Virus record (IMG/VR): IMGVR_UViG_3300017747_003119
Coordinates: 1 to 33,666 of that record
Origin: a virus
Taxonomy: Duplodnaviria; Caudoviricetes
Length of the DNA: 33,666 nt
Reading direction: 5' to 3' (one strand)
Shown: positions 7,272 through 23,897 of the stretch, one piece after another
Position numbering within the stretch: the first letter of the stretch is position 1
How the letters are laid out: every line of letters starts with the position of its first letter
Made by a program: the position numbers and the translations under genes
The notes under the pieces: model-generated
The model's database searches: none
What the model saw: the letters and a program-made list of their open reading frames with translations, nothing else
Told to the model about the DNA's origin: nothing

Positions 7272-8111
7272 GTGAATCTTTCCAGCCGCCCGAAATTCAA
7301 CAAAGGCGACCAACTCAGCGAGTTCCCGGGCCCGGCGTGGAACGAACTGATGGATATGCTCGAATGGTATCGTCGCACGATTCCATTCGGCCGCGACACG
7401 AAGCGCGAATCGCCCCGCTACCGCCGCTGCAACACGATCAGAATCAAGAACGCCACGGAGTCGAACCTTGCCGTCGGCGCAATCGTCGCGATCAACGGCA
7501 GCATCTACGACCCAGCCGAATCCGATCAACTCGACGCCTTCCGCACGGAGCCGATTTTCGTCGGATCATCACCGGAGTTCCCCGAAGATATCGGCCGGTT
7601 CGCCGTGCTGTTGCAGCCGCTCGCGGCGGATGAGATCGGCGATGCCGCGATTGAGGGTATCGTCGCCTGCAAGGTCAAGATGGACTTCCAAGGCCGCCGC
7701 TTCGCCGATATCGCGTTCGACGGCGTGACCCCGACGGCGCACCTCGTCGGCAACGAATGCGGCGGCGCGGAAATCCTCTACATCGAGGACATGAACGAAG
7801 CGGCTGAAGATTGGACGGCTGGCGTCAAGGCAGCTCTAGTTCGCGTCGGCAGCTTCAACGACCCCGATCTTATCGTTAGCTGGGACGGCGATCTTGAGTA
7901 CGGCATTGAGAAAGAGGCTTACGTTCACGAAGCAGGTGGCCCGACCGAGCGAACGATTCCGCTGTACGGCTCGATCATTGGCGGATTTAGCGGGCAGCTA
8001 CTTGGGATCGCGTCGCCGGGCGAAATGGCCTGGGCGCACTTCCATCGGGAAAGCGGCATCTTTGAACTCGGCGCAAATACTCGGATGTTTGAGTCGATTA
8101 ATGATCCGTAA
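7272..8111 (+). CDS. Putative tail tip / baseplate-associated protein
   Basis: Last gene of the structural operon, with WN...D, IKNATES.L and FAVLLQPL...IG.A.I.G segments. Confidence 0.45.
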   Translation: MNLSSRPKFNKGDQLSEFPGPAWNELMDMLEWYRRTIPFGRDTKRESPRYRRCNTIRIKNATESNLAVGAIVAINGSIYDPAESDQLDAFRTEPIFVGSSPEFPEDIGRFAVLLQPLAADEIGDAAIEGIVACKVKMDFQGRRFADIAFDGVTPTAHLVGNECGGAEILYIEDMNEAAEDWTAGVKAALVRVGSFNDPDLIVSWDGDLEYGIEKEAYVHEAGGPTERTIPLYGSIIGGFSGQLLGIASPGEMAWAHFHRESGIFELGANTRMFESINDP

Positions 8112-8119
8112 GGGTGCGG

Positions 8120-8551
8120 CTATCGCCCGCGCACGATCGCCCCAAACAACGCAAGCCCGATGCCCGTGATGACGCCGATCAATTGGTTGTGCATCAGGCC
8201 GAGGTTATTGACCCGGCCGCCGGCTTCAGTTGCAACCGACGTATCGACCAGGAATAGAAAGAAGCACGCGATGCAGCCGCCGACGATGCGGAAGTATGCA
8301 CCCGCGCAAACCGCGCCGCAACTATTGCATCCCGAGTTCCCGCCAAACGACGACGCTCGCCGATTCGGTGCCGTGCCGGGAAAACAATCTTGCGTCCGCC
8401 TAACGATGCCGATATAAGGATGGCATGAACGTAACCAAACTACAAACGGAATACGTGGGCGTTTCTCGCGCGGCAAAGATTCTCGGCGTGACACCAGGCC
8501 GAATTCGGCAGCTAGTCGGAAACTACGAAAAAAACATTCTGCCGGCCGCAA
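8120..8551 (-). CDS. Small membrane protein (start uncertain, possibly a remnant)
   Basis: Two hydrophobic segments flank DTSV....RVNNLGLM. The listed 5' part overlaps the HTH gene, so the true start is unclear. Confidence 0.4.
   Translation of the reverse strand: MRPAECFFRSFRLAAEFGLVSRRESLPREKRPRIPFVVWLRSCHPYIGIVRRTQDCFPGTAPNRRASSFGGNSGCNSCGAVCAGAYFRIVGGCIACFFLFLVDTSVATEAGGRVNNLGLMHNQLIGVITGIGLALFGAIVRGR
8390..8418 (+). promoter_or_regulatory. Putative sigma70 promoter of HTH gene
   Basis: TTGCGT-17 nt-TATAAG, 6 nt upstream of ATG 8425. Confidence 0.4.
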
Positions 8552-8637
8552 AGCTGGGTCAAAAAGAATGGATGATTCGAGTATCCGACATAGCTAAATA
8601 CGCAAAAAAACACGGTGTTTTTGCGAACTTCAGTTAG
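8425..8637 (+). CDS. Helix-turn-helix DNA-binding protein (HTH_17/excisionase-like)
   Basis: VSRAAKILGVTPGRIRQLV...LPA.KLG..WMI...DI pattern. Confidence 0.8.
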   Translation: MNVTKLQTEYVGVSRAAKILGVTPGRIRQLVGNYEKNILPAAKLGQKEWMIRVSDIAKYAKKHGVFANFS

Positions 8638-8675
8638 TCGCCAGAAACTGCTTTCAAAATTTTTTCTTAAGTCTA

Positions 8676-8703
8676 TTGACTAACGAAAACGATAGTCTAG
8701 GAT
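8676..8703 (+). promoter_or_regulatory. Putative early promoter
   Basis: TTGACT-16 nt-TAGGAT preceded by an AT-rich tract (aaaattttttcttaa) in an otherwise GC-rich genome. Confidence 0.55.
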
Positions 8704-8857
8704 ACGCCAAGTTCATTGAAGGACATCGACCGCGAACGGATCGCAGCCGGGCGAGGTAACGGAACGCCGAACTAGCACCGCCTTTGCGTGTGCTCAACCC
8801 CCAGCCGCAGCGCGGTACATAGCTACTGCTATGCCCTGATTTTTGAACGGAGTCGAA

Positions 8858-9694
8858 ATGTCGGAAGTCACAAGCACAATCCACGGCCAGTTACCCTGCA
8901 AGGTCCACGAAGCGGCGAACATCTTTCCAATGATGTCGCCGGATGAATTCGATGGCCTGAAGAAAGACATCGCGGAGCACGGCGTCAAAGACAAGATCGT
9001 CTTTTGGGACGGCCGCTTGCTCGACGGCCGCAACCGGCTATCCGCGATGATCGCACTCGGCATTGATTGGGAGCCGCATCGCCGCGACTTGAAGATTGCC
9101 GAAGACCCGGTGGCGTATGTGATCAGTCACAACTTGCATCGTCGTCATCTTGACACATCGCAACGTGCGATGGTCGCCGCAAAGTTGCGGCCACTCTATG
9201 AGCAGCAAGCGAAGGACCGACAGAAGATCCGAAAGGGCAGGCAAGCGGGCGCAGAGGCAACTATGGAAAATTTGCCACAGTTGGATTCATCGAGCGCCCG
9301 TGATGCCGCAGGCGAAGCCCTCAACGTCTCAGGCAAAACGGTTGATGCCGCAACTGTCGTCCTCGAAACCGGCAACAAAGAACTCATCTCGCTGGTCGAG
9401 CAGGGCGAAGTCGCCGTTAGCGCCGTCGCCAAGCAATTGAAAGACGATCAGGCGAGCGCCGCTGAGATTGTTGAGCGCATTAAGTCGGGCGAAGCCGCCG
9501 CGCCGAAGTCAAGCGGCCCGACGCAGTGGGACCGCTGGGAATCGCTGAACGAAAAGGCTCGCTCGTTCTTCGATCAACTCGTTGCCGAACGTCGCGAGAA
9601 TGACAAGAGCAACGCGGTTTTGAGTCTGTATGAGCAGCTAGAGTCCGCAGTTCGGGCGTATCGAAAATCAGTTTCACGAAATCGCGGAGTTTAG
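8858..9694 (+). CDS. ParB N-terminal domain protein
   Basis: HEAANIFPMM...EF..LK.DI..HG....I......LLDGRNR..A and VISHNLHRRHL..SQRAM motifs, followed by an HTH-like ARD.AGE.LNVSGKTV segment. Confidence 0.8.
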   Translation: MSEVTSTIHGQLPCKVHEAANIFPMMSPDEFDGLKKDIAEHGVKDKIVFWDGRLLDGRNRLSAMIALGIDWEPHRRDLKIAEDPVAYVISHNLHRRHLDTSQRAMVAAKLRPLYEQQAKDRQKIRKGRQAGAEATMENLPQLDSSSARDAAGEALNVSGKTVDAATVVLETGNKELISLVEQGEVAVSAVAKQLKDDQASAAEIVERIKSGEAAAPKSSGPTQWDRWESLNEKARSFFDQLVAERRENDKSNAVLSLYEQLESAVRAYRKSVSRNRGV

Positions 9695-9696
9695 TC

Positions 9697-10554
9697 ATGG
9701 CATGGCAAATGATCGGAAAGCCGACAACGCAGGTCGCGGATCATCAGTTGGTCGAGCGGTTCGCAACAATGACTCGCTTCGGTGGAGATCGCAAGCTCAA
9801 TAAGGGGCGATGCGAACGACTTCGCACGCTGCTTGACGAAGGCAAGTTTCGCACGTGCGCATGGGCAACGTGTCATTGTCGCGCCGACGGCAAGGACTAC
9901 CGCATCAACGGACAGCACACGTCGCACGTCCTGTCGGAGTTCAACGGTTCGCTTCCGGCCGTGTTCGTTACGGTCGAGCGATACGAAGCCGACACGCTCG
10001 AAGACGTCGCGGAGTTGTTCGCAACCTTTGACCCGCGATGGTCAACTCGCACAACGGCCGACACGAACAATGCTTTCGCACATGCAATCCCGGCTTTGGC
10101 CGAAGTCAATCCGCGTGCGATCGACTTGGCGGCCTCCGGCATGGCTCTTTATTTCGGCGGCGGCTCGCGCCATCGCGTGACGCAAGAGCAGCGCGGCCGA
10201 AGCATCGCGAAGAATACGACGTTTGTGCTGTGGCTCAACGGAATCGACATTTGCACGCAGGCGACAAAGCGATTCATGGCGCGGTCGGCGGTCGCTGCGG
10301 CGATGTATGCCTGCCACTCCCAAGACCAAGAGGCTGCGACCGAATTCTGGACGGCCGTGAGAAACGCGAGCGAGCCGGACGCCTGCCACCCAACGCGCAT
10401 GCTTGAGCGATATCTGATCGGCGCGAAGGGTAGGACCGACGACCGCGAAATCTTCGCCAAGTGCGTCAATGCTTGGAATGCTTGGCGTCGCGGGACGGTC
10501 ACGCTCAAGGTTCTGAAGTGGTTCCCTGAGTCGCCGCGCCCCGAAGCCATCTAA
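9697..10554 (+). CDS. ParB-superfamily (DGQH-like motif) protein
   Basis: DRKL.......L...L..G.F and INGQHTS resemble the DGQHR motif region. TFD....R motif follows. Confidence 0.5.
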   Translation: MAWQMIGKPTTQVADHQLVERFATMTRFGGDRKLNKGRCERLRTLLDEGKFRTCAWATCHCRADGKDYRINGQHTSHVLSEFNGSLPAVFVTVERYEADTLEDVAELFATFDPRWSTRTTADTNNAFAHAIPALAEVNPRAIDLAASGMALYFGGGSRHRVTQEQRGRSIAKNTTFVLWLNGIDICTQATKRFMARSAVAAAMYACHSQDQEAATEFWTAVRNASEPDACHPTRMLERYLIGAKGRTDDREIFAKCVNAWNAWRRGTVTLKVLKWFPESPRPEAI

Positions 10555-10594
10555 CCCGCACTCTTCTCCCGCCGGCTCGTCGCCAGCGGAGTCC

Positions 10595-10637
10595 CTCTCG
10601 GGCGGTCGATCCCCACGGCCGGCCGCTCGGGAGTTTT
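10595..10637 (+). terminator. Putative intrinsic terminator/attenuator hairpin
   Basis: 14-bp stem CTCTCGGGCGGTCG / CGGCCGCTCGGGAG, whose three non-Watson-Crick positions are all G-U, followed by TTTT. Confidence 0.45.
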
Positions 10638-10658
10638 CACTCAAGCACGGATGCAACC

Positions 10659-11030
10659 ATGCCACTAGCACGAACAACAGACGGCCCGGCAAGTCACCGC
10701 GCCGCCGCAACGATCCCCTGCGACGAGAAAGACAAGAACAAACCGACGCCCGAGCTACTCGCCGCCGTGCTGATGTGCTTGCCGACTCATGACGATTGGA
10801 ACCAACCGCAGATCGAAGCCCTGATGCGATCCACTCCGGCAGGCATTCGTCCCGACAACGGCGAGCGCTGGAGCGATCAACGAGTACGCGGCTGCCTCAA
10901 GTGGCTGGAGACGCAAGGCCGCACGGAGATTGCAGACGACGGCGGACGTTATACGAGGTTTCGCTGTGTCGCTCCGAAGCCGAGCGAGTCGCAGCCGGAA
11001 GTGAAGGCCATTCAAACATCGATGTTCTAA
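10659..11030 (+). CDS. Hypothetical protein, possible winged-helix
   Basis: ART.D...SH.AA N-terminus and a SDQRVRGCLKWLE..G helix. Confidence 0.5.
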   Translation: MPLARTTDGPASHRAAATIPCDEKDKNKPTPELLAAVLMCLPTHDDWNQPQIEALMRSTPAGIRPDNGERWSDQRVRGCLKWLETQGRTEIADDGGRYTRFRCVAPKPSESQPEVKAIQTSMF

Positions 11031-11040
11031 GGAGCGACCA

Positions 11041-11148
11041 ATGGACGACAACCGCCCGGCAATCTGGTTCATCGCGTTCGTGGTCGCCTCGGCGGTGGTG
11101 CTCATCGCGGTGACGTGCAAGGCAATGGAAGCGATGCAGGGACTGTAG
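11041..11148 (+). CDS. Small single-TM protein (35 aa, not in ORF track)
   Basis: AAGGAG RBS, then MDDNRPAIWFIAFVVASAVVLIAVTCKAMEAMQGL. Confidence 0.55.
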   Translation: MDDNRPAIWFIAFVVASAVVLIAVTCKAMEAMQGL

Positions 11149-11233
11149 GAGACGCGGCGAAGATGCCGCTGGACATCAAGGACGCAGGCTCGGCGGGCTG
11201 ACGGAAGGCCCGGCCGAGAAGGAGACGCAGGAT
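11125..11233 (+). ncRNA. Candidate CsrA-binding GGA-repeat RNA element
   Basis: Eight GGA motifs in about 106 nt, several in hairpin loops. csrA homolog lies about 2 kb downstream. Confidence 0.4.
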
Positions 11234-11609
11234 GGGCACGAACTATTACCTACATCAAAACGTTTGCGAACATTGCAAGCGATCCGACGAGCCGGTTCAT
11301 ATCGGCAAATCTTCGGGCGGCTGGTCTTTTAGCTTTCGCGGCTATCGATCGGAGCACGATCCGCTCGGCGCGATTACGTCAGAGGCCGATTGGCGGCGCG
11401 TGATCACGGAAGGCGACGGGCAGATATTAAACGAGTACGGCGACCGCATCGGCGTGATTGAGTTCTGGCAGATGATCGAAGCAAAGAAGATTGAGCCAAA
11501 CAACCATACGACCTACTGCCGGAATGATGCGCAGCACAGCGACCACGGCTACAGGTTCTGCGACTACGACGACGCCGGAAATTCGTTCACGTTTTCGGAC
11601 TTCAGTTAA
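11232..11609 (+). CDS. Conserved phage hypothetical protein
   Basis: MGTNYY..C..C...HIGKSSGGW.F...I.NEYG...DFS pattern familiar from phage ORFs. Strong RBS. Confidence 0.7.
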   Translation: MGTNYYLHQNVCEHCKRSDEPVHIGKSSGGWSFSFRGYRSEHDPLGAITSEADWRRVITEGDGQILNEYGDRIGVIEFWQMIEAKKIEPNNHTTYCRNDAQHSDHGYRFCDYDDAGNSFTFSDFS

Positions 11610-11620
11610 GGAACAATTAC

Positions 11621-11803
11621 ATGGCACGGACTGCCAGATACGAAATCGCCCCTACGCAAGTCGGCTACGTCGTAATCGACAACCTAACAAGCATGCGAGT
11701 TCGCGGCCCCTTCGATGGCCCGACCGGACGCAAGGTAGCGGCGGAGGCTCGCGACAAGCTGGAACGCGAAGCCGAGGCTAAGCGAGCGCGGGGTGCGAGA
11801 TGA
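11621..11803 (+). CDS. Hypothetical protein
   Basis: AAGGAA RBS. Stop overlaps the next start (ATGA). Confidence 0.6.
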   Translation: MARTARYEIAPTQVGYVVIDNLTSMRVRGPFDGPTGRKVAAEARDKLEREAEAKRARGAR

Positions 11804-12006
11804 ACCGCATCCAGCCGACCGAAACGGCACTACACACGGTCGCCCTGATCAAAGGCGACGAGCGGTATTTGTTCGTGTTCGACGACACGCAAGAGCCGGA
11901 AGTGCTGCGAGTGTTCGGCCGTTTTGCCAGTAATCCGACGCTTTCGTTTACGTGGTACGACGCGGCCGTGTTGAGTCAGAAGATTCGCGAAAGGAGGAAC
12001 GTATGA
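11800..12006 (+). CDS. Small protein resembling a planctomycete-conserved hypothetical
   Basis: ALIKGDERYLFVFDD....VLRVFGRFASNP.LSFTWYDAAVLSQKIR, recalled from planctomycete genomes and not verified by search. Confidence 0.7.
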   Translation: MNRIQPTETALHTVALIKGDERYLFVFDDTQEPEVLRVFGRFASNPTLSFTWYDAAVLSQKIRERRNV

Positions 12007-12269
12007 GCGCAACCAACTGCCGAACCGATTGCACGGCCCTCAAGTGCGAACATTGCGGCGCAACCGGCGTCGCGATGGAAACTCCCATCCACGGCGTGAC
12101 GATGCGATTCGCCACCTTTGCGTGCGGCTCGGAGTCGTCTGAAAAGCTGATCAACGGCGAGTGGCAGCAAGGCGGCACGATTCGCGGTTCGCTGTGTCGC
12201 AAGAACTGCGGCGAAGTGGACAAGCCGACCGAGATGCCGGACCTGCGAAGTTGGAAGCGAAGGGGATGA
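12003..12269 (+). CDS. Cys-rich hypothetical protein
   Basis: AGGAGG RBS, ATGA coupling, CxxC motifs. Confidence 0.55.
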   Translation: MSATNCRTDCTALKCEHCGATGVAMETPIHGVTMRFATFACGSESSEKLINGEWQQGGTIRGSLCRKNCGEVDKPTEMPDLRSWKRRG

Positions 12270-12315
12270 TGCGTGCGGCTTTTGCCGCGGCGGAACAACT
12301 AAGGGGAGAGAGCTG

Positions 12316-12531
12316 ATGTTGAGCAAAGAGAACTATCCGATGTACGCGGCTTCATACGGCGTGAGCGTGTGCGGCCTGACTACTCGCGAACTGTTCGCCG
12401 CGATGGCGATGCAAGGGCTGTGTGCGTGCCAGGGTGCTTACGAGGAATGGACTGTAGAGCAAAAGGCGGCAGCGGCCGTGAGGCAAGCCGACGCCCTGAT
12501 CGCCGAACTCAACAAGCCGAAGGGAGCGTGA
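12316..12531 (+). CDS. Conserved phage hypothetical protein
   Basis: GLTTRELFAAMAMQGL...AVRQADALIAEL motif, common in phage early genes. Confidence 0.75.
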   Translation: MLSKENYPMYAASYGVSVCGLTTRELFAAMAMQGLCACQGAYEEWTVEQKAAAAVRQADALIAELNKPKGA

Positions 12532-12535
12532 TGCG

Positions 12536-12904
12536 ATGAGCGAATTCAAGGGAACGCCGGGGCCGTATGAGTTTGTGCCGATCGATAAGTTCCCTTTCGG
12601 CTACGAGATCAAGGCGGGCGACGACACGCTGGCAAGTCAAGATTCTGCGGCATGGGCGAGCGGTCAAAAGACTCGCGAGGACAATCTCATGGGGATCGGG
12701 TTCCCACCTGGGGAGCGAGCGGAAGTTGTCGCGGCGATCGCGAAGCAGGAATCCAACGGCAAGCTGTTTGCCGCGTCGTTCGACTTGCTCGAAGCCTGTC
12801 AGATTGCCCGCGAGTGGTTCAACGCGAACTGCGCGATGACGGCAAGAGAGAGCAAGTTCACCGTCGGCTCGCTCGACGCCGCGATTCGCAAGGCCACGTC
12901 ATGA
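12536..12904 (+). CDS. Conserved phage hypothetical protein
   Basis: MSEFKGTPGP...N..L.AA..DLLEA...AAI.KA family pattern. Confidence 0.7.
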   Translation: MSEFKGTPGPYEFVPIDKFPFGYEIKAGDDTLASQDSAAWASGQKTREDNLMGIGFPPGERAEVVAAIAKQESNGKLFAASFDLLEACQIAREWFNANCAMTARESKFTVGSLDAAIRKATS

Positions 12905-12990
12905 CCGACCGCACCGCATCCCGCCTGTTCGTTACCGCCGTCGTCGTGATCGGCTGCGGGCTGGCGATTTGGGCTTTTTTGAAAGGATGA
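12901..12990 (+). CDS. Small single-TM peptide (29 aa)
   Basis: ATGA coupling. MTDRTASRLFVTAVVVIGCGLAIWAFLKG. Confidence 0.45.
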   Translation: MTDRTASRLFVTAVVVIGCGLAIWAFLKG

Positions 12991-12994
12991 CACG

Positions 12995-13222
12995 ATGAGA
13001 AAGATTATTGACTCGAAGCGCGAAGCCGCATTAGTAGACGCCCTCAGCGCCATGCACGACCAAGCGGCGGCACTCGAAGAACCGCTCGCCAAGATCGTCG
13101 CGGCCCTGCGTGATTTCGAGGCGCACGACGATGTGGAAGTGTTCGACACGTTTCTGGCCTATGCCCGCGACTTGACGCAAGAGTCGCTGTCGATGGCGCA
13201 GGCGATTGAGAATCGCGAGTAG
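12995..13222 (+). CDS. Hypothetical helical protein
   Basis: AAGGA RBS, fits operon packing. Confidence 0.55.
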   Translation: MRKIIDSKREAALVDALSAMHDQAAALEEPLAKIVAALRDFEAHDDVEVFDTFLAYARDLTQESLSMAQAIENRE

Positions 13223-13258
13223 TTACGAAACGGCACGAAGCCACCAAGGAGCAACGGA

Positions 13259-13462
13259 ATGCTAGCCCTCACAGTCAAGACAGGTCACTCAGTTCAAATC
13301 GGAAACACAACCGTGCATGTCGTGCGACTGAAAGATAACGGCGTCGTGCTGGCGATCGACGCGCCGCCGAATGTGCCGATCGTTCGAGACGATGCCAAAA
13401 GCAGGGAGCCGAAACATTTGATCGACGCGGAAAAACTTAACCAAGCAACAGGGAGCGAGTGA
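13259..13462 (+). CDS. csrA: Carbon storage regulator CsrA/RsmA-family RNA-binding protein
   Basis: MLALTVKTGHSVQIG..TVHVV.....V.LAIDAP.NVPIVR aligns with the CsrA pattern MLILTR..GE...IG....V.V......VRIG..AP..V.V.R. Confidence 0.85.
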   Translation: MLALTVKTGHSVQIGNTTVHVVRLKDNGVVLAIDAPPNVPIVRDDAKSREPKHLIDAEKLNQATGSE

Positions 13463-14370
13463 ACATGGAGACCGCAACCGAAGAAACGAGCGTCTCGAAA
13501 CTACCGGCCGTAAGTTACGACATCTCGGCGGAGCGGCTCGCCGAATTGGAGGCCGAGTGCGCGACGCTCGACCCGACCAAGGGGACGAAGGCATACGACG
13601 AGGCCCGCGTTGTGCTGCGAAAGCTCGTCACGACCCGCACGGCGATGGACAAGAAGCGGAAGGAACTCAAGGCCGATTCGCTCGCCTGGGGCCGGCTTGT
13701 CGATTCCGAATATAAGAAGTGGGAAACGAAGCTGTTGGCGATCGAGGAACCCGTCGCCGCGAAGATCAAAGCCGTGGACGACGCAAAGGAGAATGCTCGC
13801 CGGGCCAAGGAAGAGGCCGAACGCAAGGCACTCGAAGCCGAACTGGAAGCCAAGCGAGCGGCCGAAGCGGCTGCACGGAAGGCCGAGCAAGACCGCATCG
13901 CCGAAGCAAACCGCGTTGAAGCCGAACGACTCGCCGCGATCGCCGCCGAGCAAGCCGCGAAGCAAAAGGAAATCGACGAGGCGAACGCGAAGATCAAGGC
14001 CGAGCAGGCGGCGGCTCAAAAGCTGATCGACGACCAACTGGCCGAGATCGCCGCAGCTAAGCGGAAGCAGGAGCAGGTCGAGCGCGAAGCCGCGATCAAG
14101 GCCCAAGCCGAGAAGGACGCCGCCGAGCGGATCGAGCGGGAGCGGATTGCGGCCGAAGAACGCAAGGCCGCGCAAGAGCGGGCGGACGCGATCGAGAAGG
14201 CTCGCATCGAAGCGGCCCGGCCGGATGTGGAGAAGATCAATTCATTGGCGTTCGCACTTTGCACGATCACGCTTCCGCAGGTCAGCACGGAAAAGGCATT
14301 GTTCTTTGTCGCGCAACTTCGTGCCGACATCGCCGAGATCGTCGAACGCTGCAAGGGGTTCAAAGCATGA
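13459..14370 (+). CDS. Coiled-coil phage protein
   Basis: E/K/A/R-rich, with R...DKKRKELK...L..GR.VD motif. Precedes the recombination genes. Confidence 0.7.
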   Translation: MNMETATEETSVSKLPAVSYDISAERLAELEAECATLDPTKGTKAYDEARVVLRKLVTTRTAMDKKRKELKADSLAWGRLVDSEYKKWETKLLAIEEPVAAKIKAVDDAKENARRAKEEAERKALEAELEAKRAAEAAARKAEQDRIAEANRVEAERLAAIAAEQAAKQKEIDEANAKIKAEQAAAQKLIDDQLAEIAAAKRKQEQVEREAAIKAQAEKDAAERIERERIAAEERKAAQERADAIEKARIEAARPDVEKINSLAFALCTITLPQVSTEKALFFVAQLRADIAEIVERCKGFKA

Positions 14371-15227
14371 CCGCAATCCCCGCCCCGCAATTTTGGGAAC
14401 TCGGCAACGCCGCCTATCACGCCGACACAACCGCGATCAGCAACAGCGGCCTAAAGCTCGTGATTCAAAACCCGGCTTTGTATTACTACCAAAAGCTATC
14501 TGGCCTTTACACGCCGAAGCCCAAGAAGCATTTCGAGGAAGGCACGGCCCTGGATGAAGCGATCTTGCGGCCGTCGAAGTACGTCGGCGAGCACGTGATT
14601 CATTACCCGCAATCCTGTCTCACGGCAAACGGCGCGAAGCATTCGGCGAAGTGCAAGGAATTCGAGGAAGCAAACCCCGGCAAGGTTTGCGTGAAAGAGT
14701 CCGATGAGTTGTGTCGCTGGATTCACGCGATTCGGATGCACAAGTCGGCACGCTCGCTACTCGAAGCGGATTGCACGTATCAAGCGACGATCGCTTGGCA
14801 CGATCAAGAGTTCGGCGTGAACCGGCGATCGCGATTCGACTGCCTGCACAAAGACGGCGCACTGATTATTGATCTAAAGACGACCGGCACCGACGCTTCG
14901 CCGCGACAGTGCGCGAGCGAGTGCGCCAAGTGGGGCTATCACCGGCAAGCGGCGTTCTACCAAGACGCAGTAGAGGCGATGTACGGCGAGCGCGTGCCGT
15001 TCGTGTTTATCTTCGTCGCCAAAGAGCCGCCCTATCGAGTCGAGACGTTCGAGCTTGACGACGAGTTTTTAAGGATCGGCCGCGACCAGAACGCAAAGGG
15101 CTTGCGGACCTACGCCAAGTGCTTGAAGTCGGGAGTCTGGCAACCCGAGACGCATGGCCGAATTATGAAGCTGTCCGCACCGCGACATCTGCGGTGGGAC
15201 AACCAATGGGATTTTGACGGCAACTAA
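14367..15227 (+). CDS. RecE/exonuclease VIII-like PD-(D/E)XK exonuclease (DUF3799-like)
   Basis: YHAD..AISNSGLK, GTA, RFD, IIDLKTT, GYHRQAAFY and FVFIFVAKEPPY motifs. Confidence 0.88.
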   Translation: MTAIPAPQFWELGNAAYHADTTAISNSGLKLVIQNPALYYYQKLSGLYTPKPKKHFEEGTALDEAILRPSKYVGEHVIHYPQSCLTANGAKHSAKCKEFEEANPGKVCVKESDELCRWIHAIRMHKSARSLLEADCTYQATIAWHDQEFGVNRRSRFDCLHKDGALIIDLKTTGTDASPRQCASECAKWGYHRQAAFYQDAVEAMYGERVPFVFIFVAKEPPYRVETFELDDEFLRIGRDQNAKGLRTYAKCLKSGVWQPETHGRIMKLSAPRHLRWDNQWDFDGN

Positions 15228-15239
15228 CTGGGAGTATTT

Positions 15240-16142
15240 ATGGGAACCGCAATCGCCGAACAACCGAAGCAAAGCGCCGCCGACAAGGTCATCACCTACG
15301 TTCCGCTCGGCGGCAAAACGTCGGTCGAGTTGACCATGACGATGGTTAAGAAGTTCCTTTGCGTGCCGACTCGGCAAGGCAACATCGCATCGGACTCGGA
15401 CATCGTGAAGTTCATGATGCTCTGCAAAGCCCGCGAGCTTGATCCGTGGGTCGGCGATGCCTACCTCGTCGGCTATGACTCCAGCGACGGCCCGGTCTTT
15501 TCTTTGATCACCGCCGCGCAAGCCTTACTGAAGCGGGCGGAAATCTCGCCCGAATACAACGGCATGGAAAGCGGTGTGATTCTCGCCGCCAAGGACGGCA
15601 CGATCACCTACCGCGACGGCGACTTAGTTCTCGACAGCGAAACGCTCGTCGGCGGCTGGGCACGTTGCCATCGCAAGGACCGCGAGCATCCGTCGTTTGA
15701 TTCCCTGAAACTCTCGACGTTCTCGACTGGCAAGAGCCGTTGGCAAAAAGACCCGGCCGGAATGATCGTCAAGTGTGCCGAGGCGTCGGCGCTTCGCAAG
15801 GCGTTCCCGACGCAACTCGGCGGCCTCTACAGCAAAGAGGAAATGGATCACCTCAGCGAAACGCGGATCGACAAGCGGAACGCCGGCAGCGTGTCGCCGA
15901 TGGTCACGGCGTCGAACCTGGATCAACTCGCCGCGAGCATCGAGAAGGAGTTCAAGACGCAGCCGACGTTGACGGCCGACGCTCCAATCCTCGCCGACCG
16001 CTTCGCCGCCTGCAAGACACACAAGGAAGCCCTGAAGCTCCGCGACGAAATCTGCGGCCCTGAATCGACCGCGACGGAAGACGAATGCACGGCCGCGCAG
16101 GAGTTGTGCGACTCTTGGGTTGCGGCCCATCCGAATGCGTGA
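15240..16142 (+). CDS. bet: Phage single-strand annealing protein (Bet/RecT family)
   Basis: FMMLCKARELDPW..DAYLVGY, LVGGWA...RKD and W.K.P..MI.KCAE..ALRKAFP motifs. Adjacent to the exonuclease. Confidence 0.9.
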   Translation: MGTAIAEQPKQSAADKVITYVPLGGKTSVELTMTMVKKFLCVPTRQGNIASDSDIVKFMMLCKARELDPWVGDAYLVGYDSSDGPVFSLITAAQALLKRAEISPEYNGMESGVILAAKDGTITYRDGDLVLDSETLVGGWARCHRKDREHPSFDSLKLSTFSTGKSRWQKDPAGMIVKCAEASALRKAFPTQLGGLYSKEEMDHLSETRIDKRNAGSVSPMVTASNLDQLAASIEKEFKTQPTLTADAPILADRFAACKTHKEALKLRDEICGPESTATEDECTAAQELCDSWVAAHPNA

Positions 16143-16161
16143 CTTTCCGCCGGGCGTTTGA

Positions 16162-16569
16162 GTGACAACCACCAAACAAGCAGAGGTCGAAATGCCCGAG
16201 ATCCAACAAGCCGACCGCGAGCGGATCGTTGAGCACCTAACGTCACTGGCCGAAGTCGTTCACAAGACATGGGGCGTCGCTGAATGCAACGGCTTCACGA
16301 TGGCGATTGACGAGATCAAACGAATGACCACCACCCCGCCCGAGCCGCGAGCGTTAACGGCGGAGGTCGTGATGAACATGCTGCCCAAGACCGACGACTA
16401 CGAAGACCATGTGACCGGGCGATACGGCTATATCACATGGAATTGGTGGGGCGGCGACAAGTTCGTGCTGCTCATTGGCTGCGAGTCCATATGCCTAGCA
16501 TCTTGGACAACCACCCGCTTCGCCGCACTCATCGCGGCGTTCGGCATCGGGGTGGGGGTGAAGTCGTGA
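16162..16569 (+). CDS. Hypothetical protein
   Basis: Operon packing, stop overlaps next GTG. Confidence 0.5.
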   Translation: MTTTKQAEVEMPEIQQADRERIVEHLTSLAEVVHKTWGVAECNGFTMAIDEIKRMTTTPPEPRALTAEVVMNMLPKTDDYEDHVTGRYGYITWNWWGGDKFVLLIGCESICLASWTTTRFAALIAAFGIGVGVKS

Positions 16570-16916
16570 AAATTAAATGCCGATGCGGAGAGCTTTTCGA
16601 CACTCTTCCTCAGTGGAAATTGCACCGCGATTCGACACCCGGGAGCCAGCATTGCGAATACGACTTGAAGGTTGAACCAACTGACGGCCTGCCAAAGGCC
16701 AAGCCGACGCCGAGCCTTCCCGACGAGTGCGTGAAGCTGCTCGACAACGGATGGAACGTCGTGTTGTTCAAGAACGGACTTGGCTCTTACTCAGCCGTCG
16801 CAACCAAAAAGCGACTGCCGGAGAGCGTTATTGACGACGGCGTAATCACCGACGACTTCACGCCGGCAAAGGCTTTGTATCGGCTCACGGAAAAGGTATT
16901 CGGGAACATCGTATGA
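16566..16916 (+). CDS. Hypothetical protein with N-terminal C2H-type Zn motif
   Basis: GTGA coupling, C.CG..F......LH. Confidence 0.5.
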   Translation: MKIKCRCGELFDTLPQWKLHRDSTPGSQHCEYDLKVEPTDGLPKAKPTPSLPDECVKLLDNGWNVVLFKNGLGSYSAVATKKRLPESVIDDGVITDDFTPAKALYRLTEKVFGNIV

Positions 16917-17140
16917 AAGGCAACCCCATGACCGACATCGACCACGCGGCGGAGCGAGTGAGGCCATGCAAGTATTGCCGCTCCGCTGTCGCCGTGAAAC
17001 TCACACCGTTTAATGCGGCCGGTGGAACAGCTTGGGTTGTTCGGTGCGGCGGGTGCGGAGCAGGGTCGGACAAGTTATGGATGAAATCAGACGCGATTAA
17101 GTCATGGAACACGCTGCACAACAAGGAGATTATTCGGTGA
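16913..17140 (+). CDS. Lar-family restriction alleviation protein
   Basis: RPCKYC....VRCGGCGA.......AIKSWN pattern. Confidence 0.7.
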   Translation: MKGNPMTDIDHAAERVRPCKYCRSAVAVKLTPFNAAGGTAWVVRCGGCGAGSDKLWMKSDAIKSWNTLHNKEIIR

Positions 17141-23052: not shown

Positions 23053-23897
23053 TGGCACGCATCCGAACCATCAAGCCGGAGTTCTGGACGTCGGAGCAGA
23101 TCGTCGAATGCTCGCGGGACGCTCGGCTCCTGTTCATCGGCCTGTGGAACTTCTGCGACGACGGCGGCGTACACCCGGCATCGATCAAACGAATCAAGAT
23201 GGAGATTTTCCCCGGCGACGACCTGACCGCTGACGACTTGCAGAATCTCGTCGACGAACTCGTCGACAACGAACTGGTTGATGTATTCGAGTCGCAAGGC
23301 AAGACGTACTGGCACGTTGCGAGTTGGGATAAGCACCAGAAGATCGATCGCCCAAGCTACAAGTTTCCGCAATTCGTCGAACGTTCGACGAACGATCATC
23401 GAACGATCGACGATCGTTCACCCCCGGAACGGAAGGGAACGGAAACGGAAGGGAGTCTAAAGGAAACGGAAGAGGGATCGTCGAAGCCGTTCTCTGGCAA
23501 GTCGGCTTTCGCTCCTTTGACTGCCGATAGCCTGTCCGATCCCGAGCAGGTGCTTGAGTGGCTGATTGAGCAGCAGGACAAAGGCTCGCCGGTCGTTAGC
23601 AACTCACAAGCCGATGTGATCAACGTTCTGGCTGCGGCGCATCAGGTGACGCACAGCAAGTCGGCCAAGAACCCGCCGGCCGTGTTTGCATCGATCGTGG
23701 CGAAGCGGAAGTGGGGCGACGTCGGGGCGGCATCCGTAGATCGTGCTCGAAAGCAGTTGCTTGCCATAGAGGCCCGCAGCCGGCCGCCGCCTGGGGCCGG
23801 GTTTGCGGCGATCGGACTCGACATTTCCAAACTCTACACGGACGGAAGCAATGGTAACGGCAGCACAGAAGGCAGCGATACGGAAGGCGCAAGATGA
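23052..23897 (+). CDS. Phage replication initiator / replisome organizer
   Basis: MARIRTIKPEFWTSE...ARLLFIGLWNFCDD.G and W.KHQKIDRPS motifs. Directly precedes DnaB. Confidence 0.8.
   Translation: MARIRTIKPEFWTSEQIVECSRDARLLFIGLWNFCDDGGVHPASIKRIKMEIFPGDDLTADDLQNLVDELVDNELVDVFESQGKTYWHVASWDKHQKIDRPSYKFPQFVERSTNDHRTIDDRSPPERKGTETEGSLKETEEGSSKPFSGKSAFAPLTADSLSDPEQVLEWLIEQQDKGSPVVSNSQADVINVLAAAHQVTHSKSAKNPPAVFASIVAKRKWGDVGAASVDRARKQLLAIEARSRPPPGAGFAAIGLDISKLYTDGSNGNGSTEGSDTEGAR
23373..23477. repeat. Palindromes plus purine-rich repeats within the initiator gene (candidate origin)
   Basis: Perfect 20-bp palindrome TTCGTCGAACGTTCGACGAA, inverted repeat GAACGATCG-A-CGATCGTTC, then GGAA(A)C/GGAAG repeats. 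Confidence 0.5.

Follow-up and report, generated by a model that had tools for sequence, protein, structure and literature searches.

A GGA-rich gene junction upstream of a divergent phage csrA as a candidate CsrA-responsive translation switch

The closest described parallels to the locus examined here are two CsrA-controlled leaders of Escherichia coli. In glgC (PMC7652899), a GGA in a hairpin loop tethers CsrA, which then bridges to the GGA of the Shine-Dalgarno (SD) sequence; distances of 10-63 nt allow this bridging, and those above 18 nt suit it best. In iraD, as described in PMC5574718, CsrA represses through a short open reading frame (ORF) that lies upstream. In CsrA ligands obtained by SELEX, the stem is in most cases no longer than 4 bp and the loop 6 nt, with extra loop bases lowering affinity, and CsrA homologues are not alike in the targets they select, a difference that goes beyond the GGA motif (PMC13443453). 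Phage-encoded CsrA/RsmA homologues are already known: the accessible parts of PMC8450108, PMC7366521 and PMC11879866 report a plaque-size effect for one of them, gp28 of PTXU04, and propose host manipulation, and name no phage RNA target. In literature titles and abstracts, where subscription coverage is incomplete, we found neither a phage CsrA sponge nor a tested phage CsrA operator.

Here, we analysed positions 11125-11233 of a 33.7-kb phage window (the whole stretch of DNA under study), a segment that a preliminary description had proposed to be either a phage CsrA sponge of the CsrB/RsmZ type or a multi-site cis switch. The GGA count of this element is real, but the element makes a weak sponge, and we consider that function unlikely. 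A role as a local switch of translation on the phage's mRNA is more likely than one as a CsrB-like decoy, because the element lies at a junction of small genes and combines two ribosome-binding sites (RBSs), a likely 12-codon mini-gene and one strong predicted hairpin with a CsrA motif. The switch half of the original proposal stays plausible as a candidate, resting on one ACGGA hairpin 18 nt from an SD GGA, on the recurrence of its loop at the csrA start and on an excess of ANGGA in the csrA leaders of other phages.

The phage and the anatomy of the junction

By Pfam and PHROGs, the window comprises a tail module followed by a lambdoid-like early region, in which an HTH gene (8425) and a ParB-like gene (8858) precede many small ORFs, csrA (13259), an exonuclease and RecT, methylases, a replication initiator and DnaB. 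A planctomycete is the likely host, because Pirellulales and other Planctomycetia have close homologues of a 68-aa host-type gene (11800-12006). Over the element, an identical contig exists in one freshwater run and is possibly the source of this DNA; among the matches listed, none that holds the element stretch is RNA. Judging from strand and packing only, we infer that the element and csrA share an operon, as first proposed. A weak promoter-like site (12979-13008) lies between the two, a further promoter-like site (8676-8703) lies in the early region, and a terminator-like 14-bp stem with four T (10595-10637) lies upstream of the element. Two side observations concern these signals: a CACGGATG site follows the stem at the RBS position of gene 10659 (window 10595-10658), and the site at 8676-8703 would lead into a long leader with three ANGGA sites (8676-8790), in which a stable GGA hairpin is not predicted.

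The element is not a free non-coding RNA. Its first part (11125-11148) forms the 3′ end of a 35-codon ORF (11041-11148, plus strand) for a hydrophobic, probably membrane peptide with neither Pfam nor PHROG matches, which contains GGA 11127 and GGA 11140 and whose stop overlaps the SD of the next reading frame. This SD, AGGAG (11147-11151, plus strand), holds GGA 11148, stands 11 nt before ATG 11163 and leads a 12-codon upstream mini-ORF (11163-11201, plus strand), or the stump of a lost gene, within which GGA 11171 and GGA 11180 are codon junctions. The mini-ORF is probably coding, to judge from its codon score of 3.13, a value reached by 75 of 775 true coding segments, by none of 1166 off-frame segments and by 15 of 1280 overlapping non-coding ones. 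Its last codons form the 5′ arm of a predicted hairpin (11189-11218), with the TGA at the stem/loop junction. The stem reaches to one base before the next gene's SD, and this SD and start (AAGGAG onwards, 11219-11234, plus strand) bring in GGA 11221 and GGA 11230, the latter overlapping the ATG inside a CsrB-type CAGGATG. The gene itself (11232-11609, plus strand), which we presume to be the regulated one, encodes a 125-aa conserved phage protein (phrog_12436) with invariant CxxC and H-x-GKS, to which protein P0008 is 72% identical.

Two SDs, four codon positions and a start codon therefore account for seven of the eight GGAs, the remainder being GGA 11203. This tally favours an explanation that we regard as a close rival to a cis operator and as quite possible, namely that the segment is an ordinary junction, with a duplicated or left-over RBS, a generic GC-rich hairpin and either a mini-ORF or the stump of a gene, and that its GGAs are SD letters and codon junctions unrelated to CsrA. 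The hairpin would then serve translational coupling, stabilize the mRNA or act as a pause site.

The statistics of GGA content bear on the same question. All eight GGAs stand where they had been reported (11127, 11140, 11148, 11171, 11180, 11203, 11221 and 11230), five of them in an ANGGA context, and the reported chance expectation of about two agrees with the 1.8 per 109 nt that we computed. The excess over 1.8 is nevertheless a best-window effect: in 2000 uniform random placements of the 554 GGAs, the probability that the best window holds at least 8 is 0.47, equally extreme best windows exist for 24 of the 64 trinucleotides, and dinucleotide shuffles of the element contain 6.0 GGAs on average (P = 0.18 for at least 8). 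What survives of the claimed density, which fails genome-wide, is a marginal excess among spacers, since the spacer 11149-11231, with 6 GGA in 83 nt, is the GGA-densest of the phage's 16 spacers of at least 40 nt (Poisson 0.003, about 0.05 after correction for 16 tests). Another window (23346-23549), inside the replication initiator gene, holds 9 GGA and 8 ANGGA, and is coding; these nine GGA and eight ANGGA fall at 23426-23477, in a purine-rich linker that is possibly origin-related.

In other planctomycete phages, GGA density does not track csrA. A window with at least 8 GGA occurs in 19 of the 21 other planctomycete viral records, whether csrA is present or not, which again suits an ordinary junction; in low-coding windows, the same threshold is reached in 6 of 15 csrA-positive versus 4 of 6 csrA-negative records. 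Against that explanation stand the marginal excess of the spacer 11149-11231 and the observation that none of 128 spacers of 60-110 nt in the 21 planctomycete records reaches 6 GGA, although 9 of 179 do so in other csrA-positive loci. The repeated unit AGGAGACGC is present, as had been noticed, at 11147 and 11220, and nowhere else. Its two copies coincide with the SD sites of starts 11163 and 11232 (GGA 11148 and 11221), which explain most of the repeat, and a repeat of at least 9 nt is found in 7% of 1678 windows of 110 nt.

Predicted folds and the comparison with CsrB-type RNAs

Three hairpins with GGA in or at the loop had been described, and they differ greatly in robustness. The third (11189-11218, plus strand) is predicted with an 11-bp stem, a folding energy of -19.2 kcal/mol and a 7-nt loop (11200-11206) containing ACGGAA; its GGA 11203 lies in the loop at P = 1.00 in all 5 contexts that hold it, and of the four strongest 30-nt hairpins of the plus strand, the other three are coding. 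We regard it as a candidate CsrA tether. The first forms in a context-dependent manner only, with GGA 11140 in a loop at P 0.81 and 0.63 in short contexts and at 0.00 in 161- and 261-nt folds, and the second is not formed (P 0.00 for GGA 11171), because a 5-bp hairpin at about 11154-11169 competes with it.

A CsrB- or RsmZ-like sponge would titrate the CsrA of phage or host as a small RNA of about 110 nt, made separately or by processing. Like CsrB/CsrC and RsmX/Y/Z, the element gathers several GGAs in about 110 nt, one of them in CAGGATG. Its 8 GGA per 109 nt approach the counts in the GGA-richest 109 nt of CsrB (10) and CsrC (9), its mean unpaired probability (0.53) is similar to theirs (0.56-0.57), one perfect and one near-perfect CsrB-type repeat are present, and csrA follows 2 kb downstream on the same strand. 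There are differences as well. Summed over hairpin loops, GGA amounts to 2.1 per 109 nt, compared with 3.6-3.8 in CsrB and CsrC, and the element has one robust GGA loop (two if the local metric is cut at P > 0.5), compared with 7 in CsrB and 4 in CsrC. Where CsrB and CsrC have a U run after the 3′ hairpin, the element has an SD and a start codon, and, instead of being non-coding, it shares positions with the 35-codon ORF, the mini-ORF and the 125-aa gene's start. Consensus scans, which may miss planctomycete promoters, gave no promoter or terminator match near the element, and Rfam returned nothing at the gathering score and no Csr/Rsm match at E <= 10. The independence of GGA density from csrA among planctomycete records points the same way. 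With its own promoter, a U-tract terminator and an Rfam match all absent, this half of the preliminary description fares poorly, and we judge a sponge highly improbable.

The E. coli RNAs were scored with the same measure as the element. A planctomycete mraZ-linked sponge had been considered as a positive control, but its 7 loci gave 1.7-2.8 per 250 nt against 2.4 here; since they were no clearer than this locus and left the metric uncalibrated, CsrB and CsrC were used instead.

A candidate operator before the 125-aa gene

The element may instead be a cis operator for CsrA of the glgC/iraD kind, with the mini-ORF as part of it, the possibility that we rank first and to which we give, on the modelled folds, somewhat less than even chances. 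An ACGGA in a hairpin loop stands upstream of the SD, and the second GGA, in the SD itself, follows 18 nt later (11203 to 11221), inside the 10-63 nt over which the glgC arrangement works. The likeness to the E. coli glgC leader (PMC7652899) lies in a hairpin-loop GGA closely 5′ of an SD GGA, here at 18 nt, with further GGAs upstream; the phage site differs in being intercistronic, in its longer stem and 7-nt loop, in being a candidate site and in a regulator that may be a divergent phage CsrA. With the E. coli iraD leader (PMC5574718), it has in common a short upstream ORF, GGAs around the SD of that ORF and structure near the downstream RBS, and it differs in the position of the ORF's stop, which falls within the hairpin at 30 nt from the downstream start, and in that of the downstream SD, which lies beside the stem and not in it. 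The geometry is not ideal for high affinity, and an 11-bp stem with a 7-nt loop, set against the SELEX ligands, counts against CsrA binding at 11203.

If the element is such an operator, regulation might proceed as follows. The predicted hairpin, one base before the SD, may by itself hinder loading of the 30S subunit, and a ribosome that reads the mini-ORF to its stop would melt it and so help initiation at 11232 by translational coupling. A CsrA dimer, encoded either by the phage or by one of many paralogous host genes, would hold the loop (11200-11206), cover the RBS of the 125-aa gene and, bridged from the loop to the SD, block initiation at 11232. Predicted opening costs fit coupling to the mini-ORF, with a CsrA block at loop and SD, without showing it: opening -20 to +13 around start 11232 would cost 16.8 kcal/mol, which ranks 48th of 57 starts, and this drops to 4.5 if 11185-11214 is kept unpaired, as a ribosome standing at the stop of the mini-ORF would do. 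With a footprint of -15 to +13, the cost at 11232 is an unremarkable 9.9 and the RBS is of median accessibility. As a separate observation, another ACGGA hairpin lies over or just after the start of gene 11621 (11621-11637), again 18 nt from an SD GGA (11610).

Several results from other phages speak for an ordinary junction. Strong hairpins upstream of genes (<= -15 kcal/mol) are common, with 52 in csrA-positive and 28 in csrA-negative records, and their loops show GGA no more often than GAA, AAG or GCA. A general enrichment of ANGGA hairpins near gene starts was absent both in the 15 csrA-positive planctomycete phages (26 of 227 versus 246 of 2222, p = 0.47) and in 70 other csrA-positive loci (37 of 336 versus 257 of 2500, p = 0.37); within the present window, the corresponding counts are 3 of 19 versus 8 of 120 (p = 0.17, or 0.054 at a stricter cut), and about 10% of all ANGGA sites lie in predicted loops anyway. 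An apparent ACGGA enrichment in the strong upstream hairpins (2 of 52 versus 0.09, p = 0.003) was dropped because it failed to replicate in the second set (0 of 130 in the 70 loci). On the other side, at least 6 GGA together with a non-SD ANGGA hairpin at P > 0.8, a combination chosen post hoc, occurs at 1 of 1367 other gene starts in the 70 csrA-bearing loci, and such a hairpin with any GGA count at 23 of 1367. What an ordinary junction would leave to coincidence is that one ANGGAN hexamer, the loop hexamer ACGGAA, is common to the strongest non-coding hairpin (11189-11218) and to a hairpin at the start of csrA.

On a lambdoid-type early transcript, the hairpin could also serve a different factor, for example in boxB-like antitermination or in processing by a nuclease. 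The layout has a lambdoid look, with the HTH gene, the promoter-like site at 8676-8703, the terminator-like stem at 10595-10637 and the recombination and replication genes, and the purine-rich loop, which starts with GA, may resemble boxB loops. However, the hairpin lies downstream of that terminator-like stem, no second copy of it appears in 8000-17000 among the repeats listed, and neither Pfam nor PHROGs identified an antiterminator; we judge this explanation, like the sponge, highly improbable.

Returning to the cis operator, distant homologues of the 125-aa gene lack this arrangement: 71 regions upstream of them are ordinary (mean 2.2 GGA, maximum 6), and csrA is present in none of 27 tested records with such a homologue. 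Close relatives were found neither in viral scans with the 125-aa gene, csrA and the exonuclease nor in a genome scan, and a metagenome scan returned only the window itself and one distant csrA; a CsrA profile search likewise added only distant CsrAs. At the DNA level, 11030-11260, searched against 401 Planctomycetia genomes, matched in short chance-level pieces only (best E 2.4e-5 per genome), one of these genomes carries the 125-aa family, and BLAST of the element region against 2.15 Mb of collected loci gave nothing significant. When 3.6 Mb were searched by motif for peptides like that of the mini-ORF, one unrelated-looking record resulted, and a pattern scan for ACGGA, an SD and a 125-aa gene start gave 16 matches, with 6-7 true homologues and one weak loop among them.

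The phage CsrA and the leaders of phage csrA genes

The gene at 13259 is csrA, as had been recognized (Pfam PF02599, E 5e-11, 42.7 bits over a cut-off of 27). As among the known phage homologues, csrA is no exception in this group, being encoded in 16 of the 22 viral records that bear the planctomycete-type 68-aa gene (G001-G022). The protein differs from those homologues in belonging to a small divergent subfamily (P0001-P0006) without Arg6. The sequence (13259-13462, plus strand) keeps Leu4 and the Arg44 equivalent, both invariant in the subfamily, and has Val in place of Arg6 and Arg31. Arg6 of CsrA contacts RNA, and the other phage CsrAs compared all retain it (15 of 15 and 70 of 70, the 70 having been chosen for likeness to canonical CsrA); the loss of Arg6 here counts against binding by the phage protein. 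The subfamily, which lacks Arg6 and Arg31 and has an invariant Arg23, may have altered RNA recognition; its member P0002 is 82% identical to the present CsrA. Each of five planctomycete genomes gives 8-14 CsrA matches, and by this sequence evidence the host can supply a CsrA reader.

The start of csrA itself carries an SD and a weak predicted hairpin (13247-13263, plus strand) with a 4-bp stem and an ACGGAA hexaloop over the start codon (loop P 0.86-0.90). Its fold is worth only -4.4 kcal/mol (z +0.66). In stem and loop size, it is closer to a textbook CsrA site than the flagged element is. We consider it a candidate autoregulatory operator on the strength of this model, through which CsrA would exert negative feedback on csrA. 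An extended circuit may be imagined, in which the divergent CsrA reads the ACGGAA loops at its own start and in the mini-ORF-gated leader, while the excised multi-GGA segment doubles as a threshold-setting CsrA decoy; we think this unlikely.

The comparison with other phages drew on the 21 other planctomycete viral records (15 csrA-positive and 6 csrA-negative) and on 70 further csrA-positive viral loci. From the former, G011 was left out because its csrA region is the same as that of G010, and G007 entered with the first 60 of its 172 kb only; the latter derive from the 79 loci L282-L360 after 9 near-duplicates were dropped, as was L281 (= G017), and the loss of one csrA whose start codon was missing at the match left 69 csrA starts. 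The planctomycete marker lies inside the locus in only 1 of these 79. Gene starts came from a simple caller that overlooks ORFs of fewer than 25 codons and may put a start in the wrong place.

In the 70 loci, ANGGA occurs in the loops of 11 of 673 upstream non-coding hairpins against 3.9 expected, a value reached in none of 500 permutations. In csrA's own leader, non-SD ANGGA stands at 0.73, compared with 0.35 in other SD-bearing starts (64 versus 863, p = 3e-4; p = 0.08 for a control motif), and ANGGA hairpins occur in 5 of 64 csrA leaders versus 20 of 863 other SD-bearing starts (p = 0.024). Coding positions were excluded from the leader test because Arg-Lys codons add GGA at +16. Owing to these two excesses, some phage leaders seem to carry CsrA sites, chiefly around csrA.

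Several individual loci deserve mention in their own right. In L283, the spacer directly before csrA (804-900) holds 7 GGA and two ANGGA hairpins; the csrA leaders of L308, L329 and L356 contain ANGGA hairpins, and GGA-loop terminator-like hairpins lie immediately 3′ of csrA in L311 and L304. In two csrA-positive planctomycete phages, L242 (minus strand near 8076) and L218 (plus strand near 8665), strong hairpins between genes share one 7-bp stem and contain ACGGA in the loop. Two spacers of L328 (2385-2471 and 2943-3031) are similar, with long hairpins and the same SD-proximal ending, and may form a repeated leader cassette.

The more general result thus comes from the other loci, where phage csrA leaders are enriched in ANGGA; this points to autoregulation and suggests, from sequence comparison, that autoregulation of phage csrA is widespread. 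As for the present phage, if the hairpin at 11189-11218 is an operator, it would be a compact substrate, open to test, for two questions: do phage CsrAs control the mRNAs of the phage itself, and can a CsrA still read GGA when Arg6 is missing?
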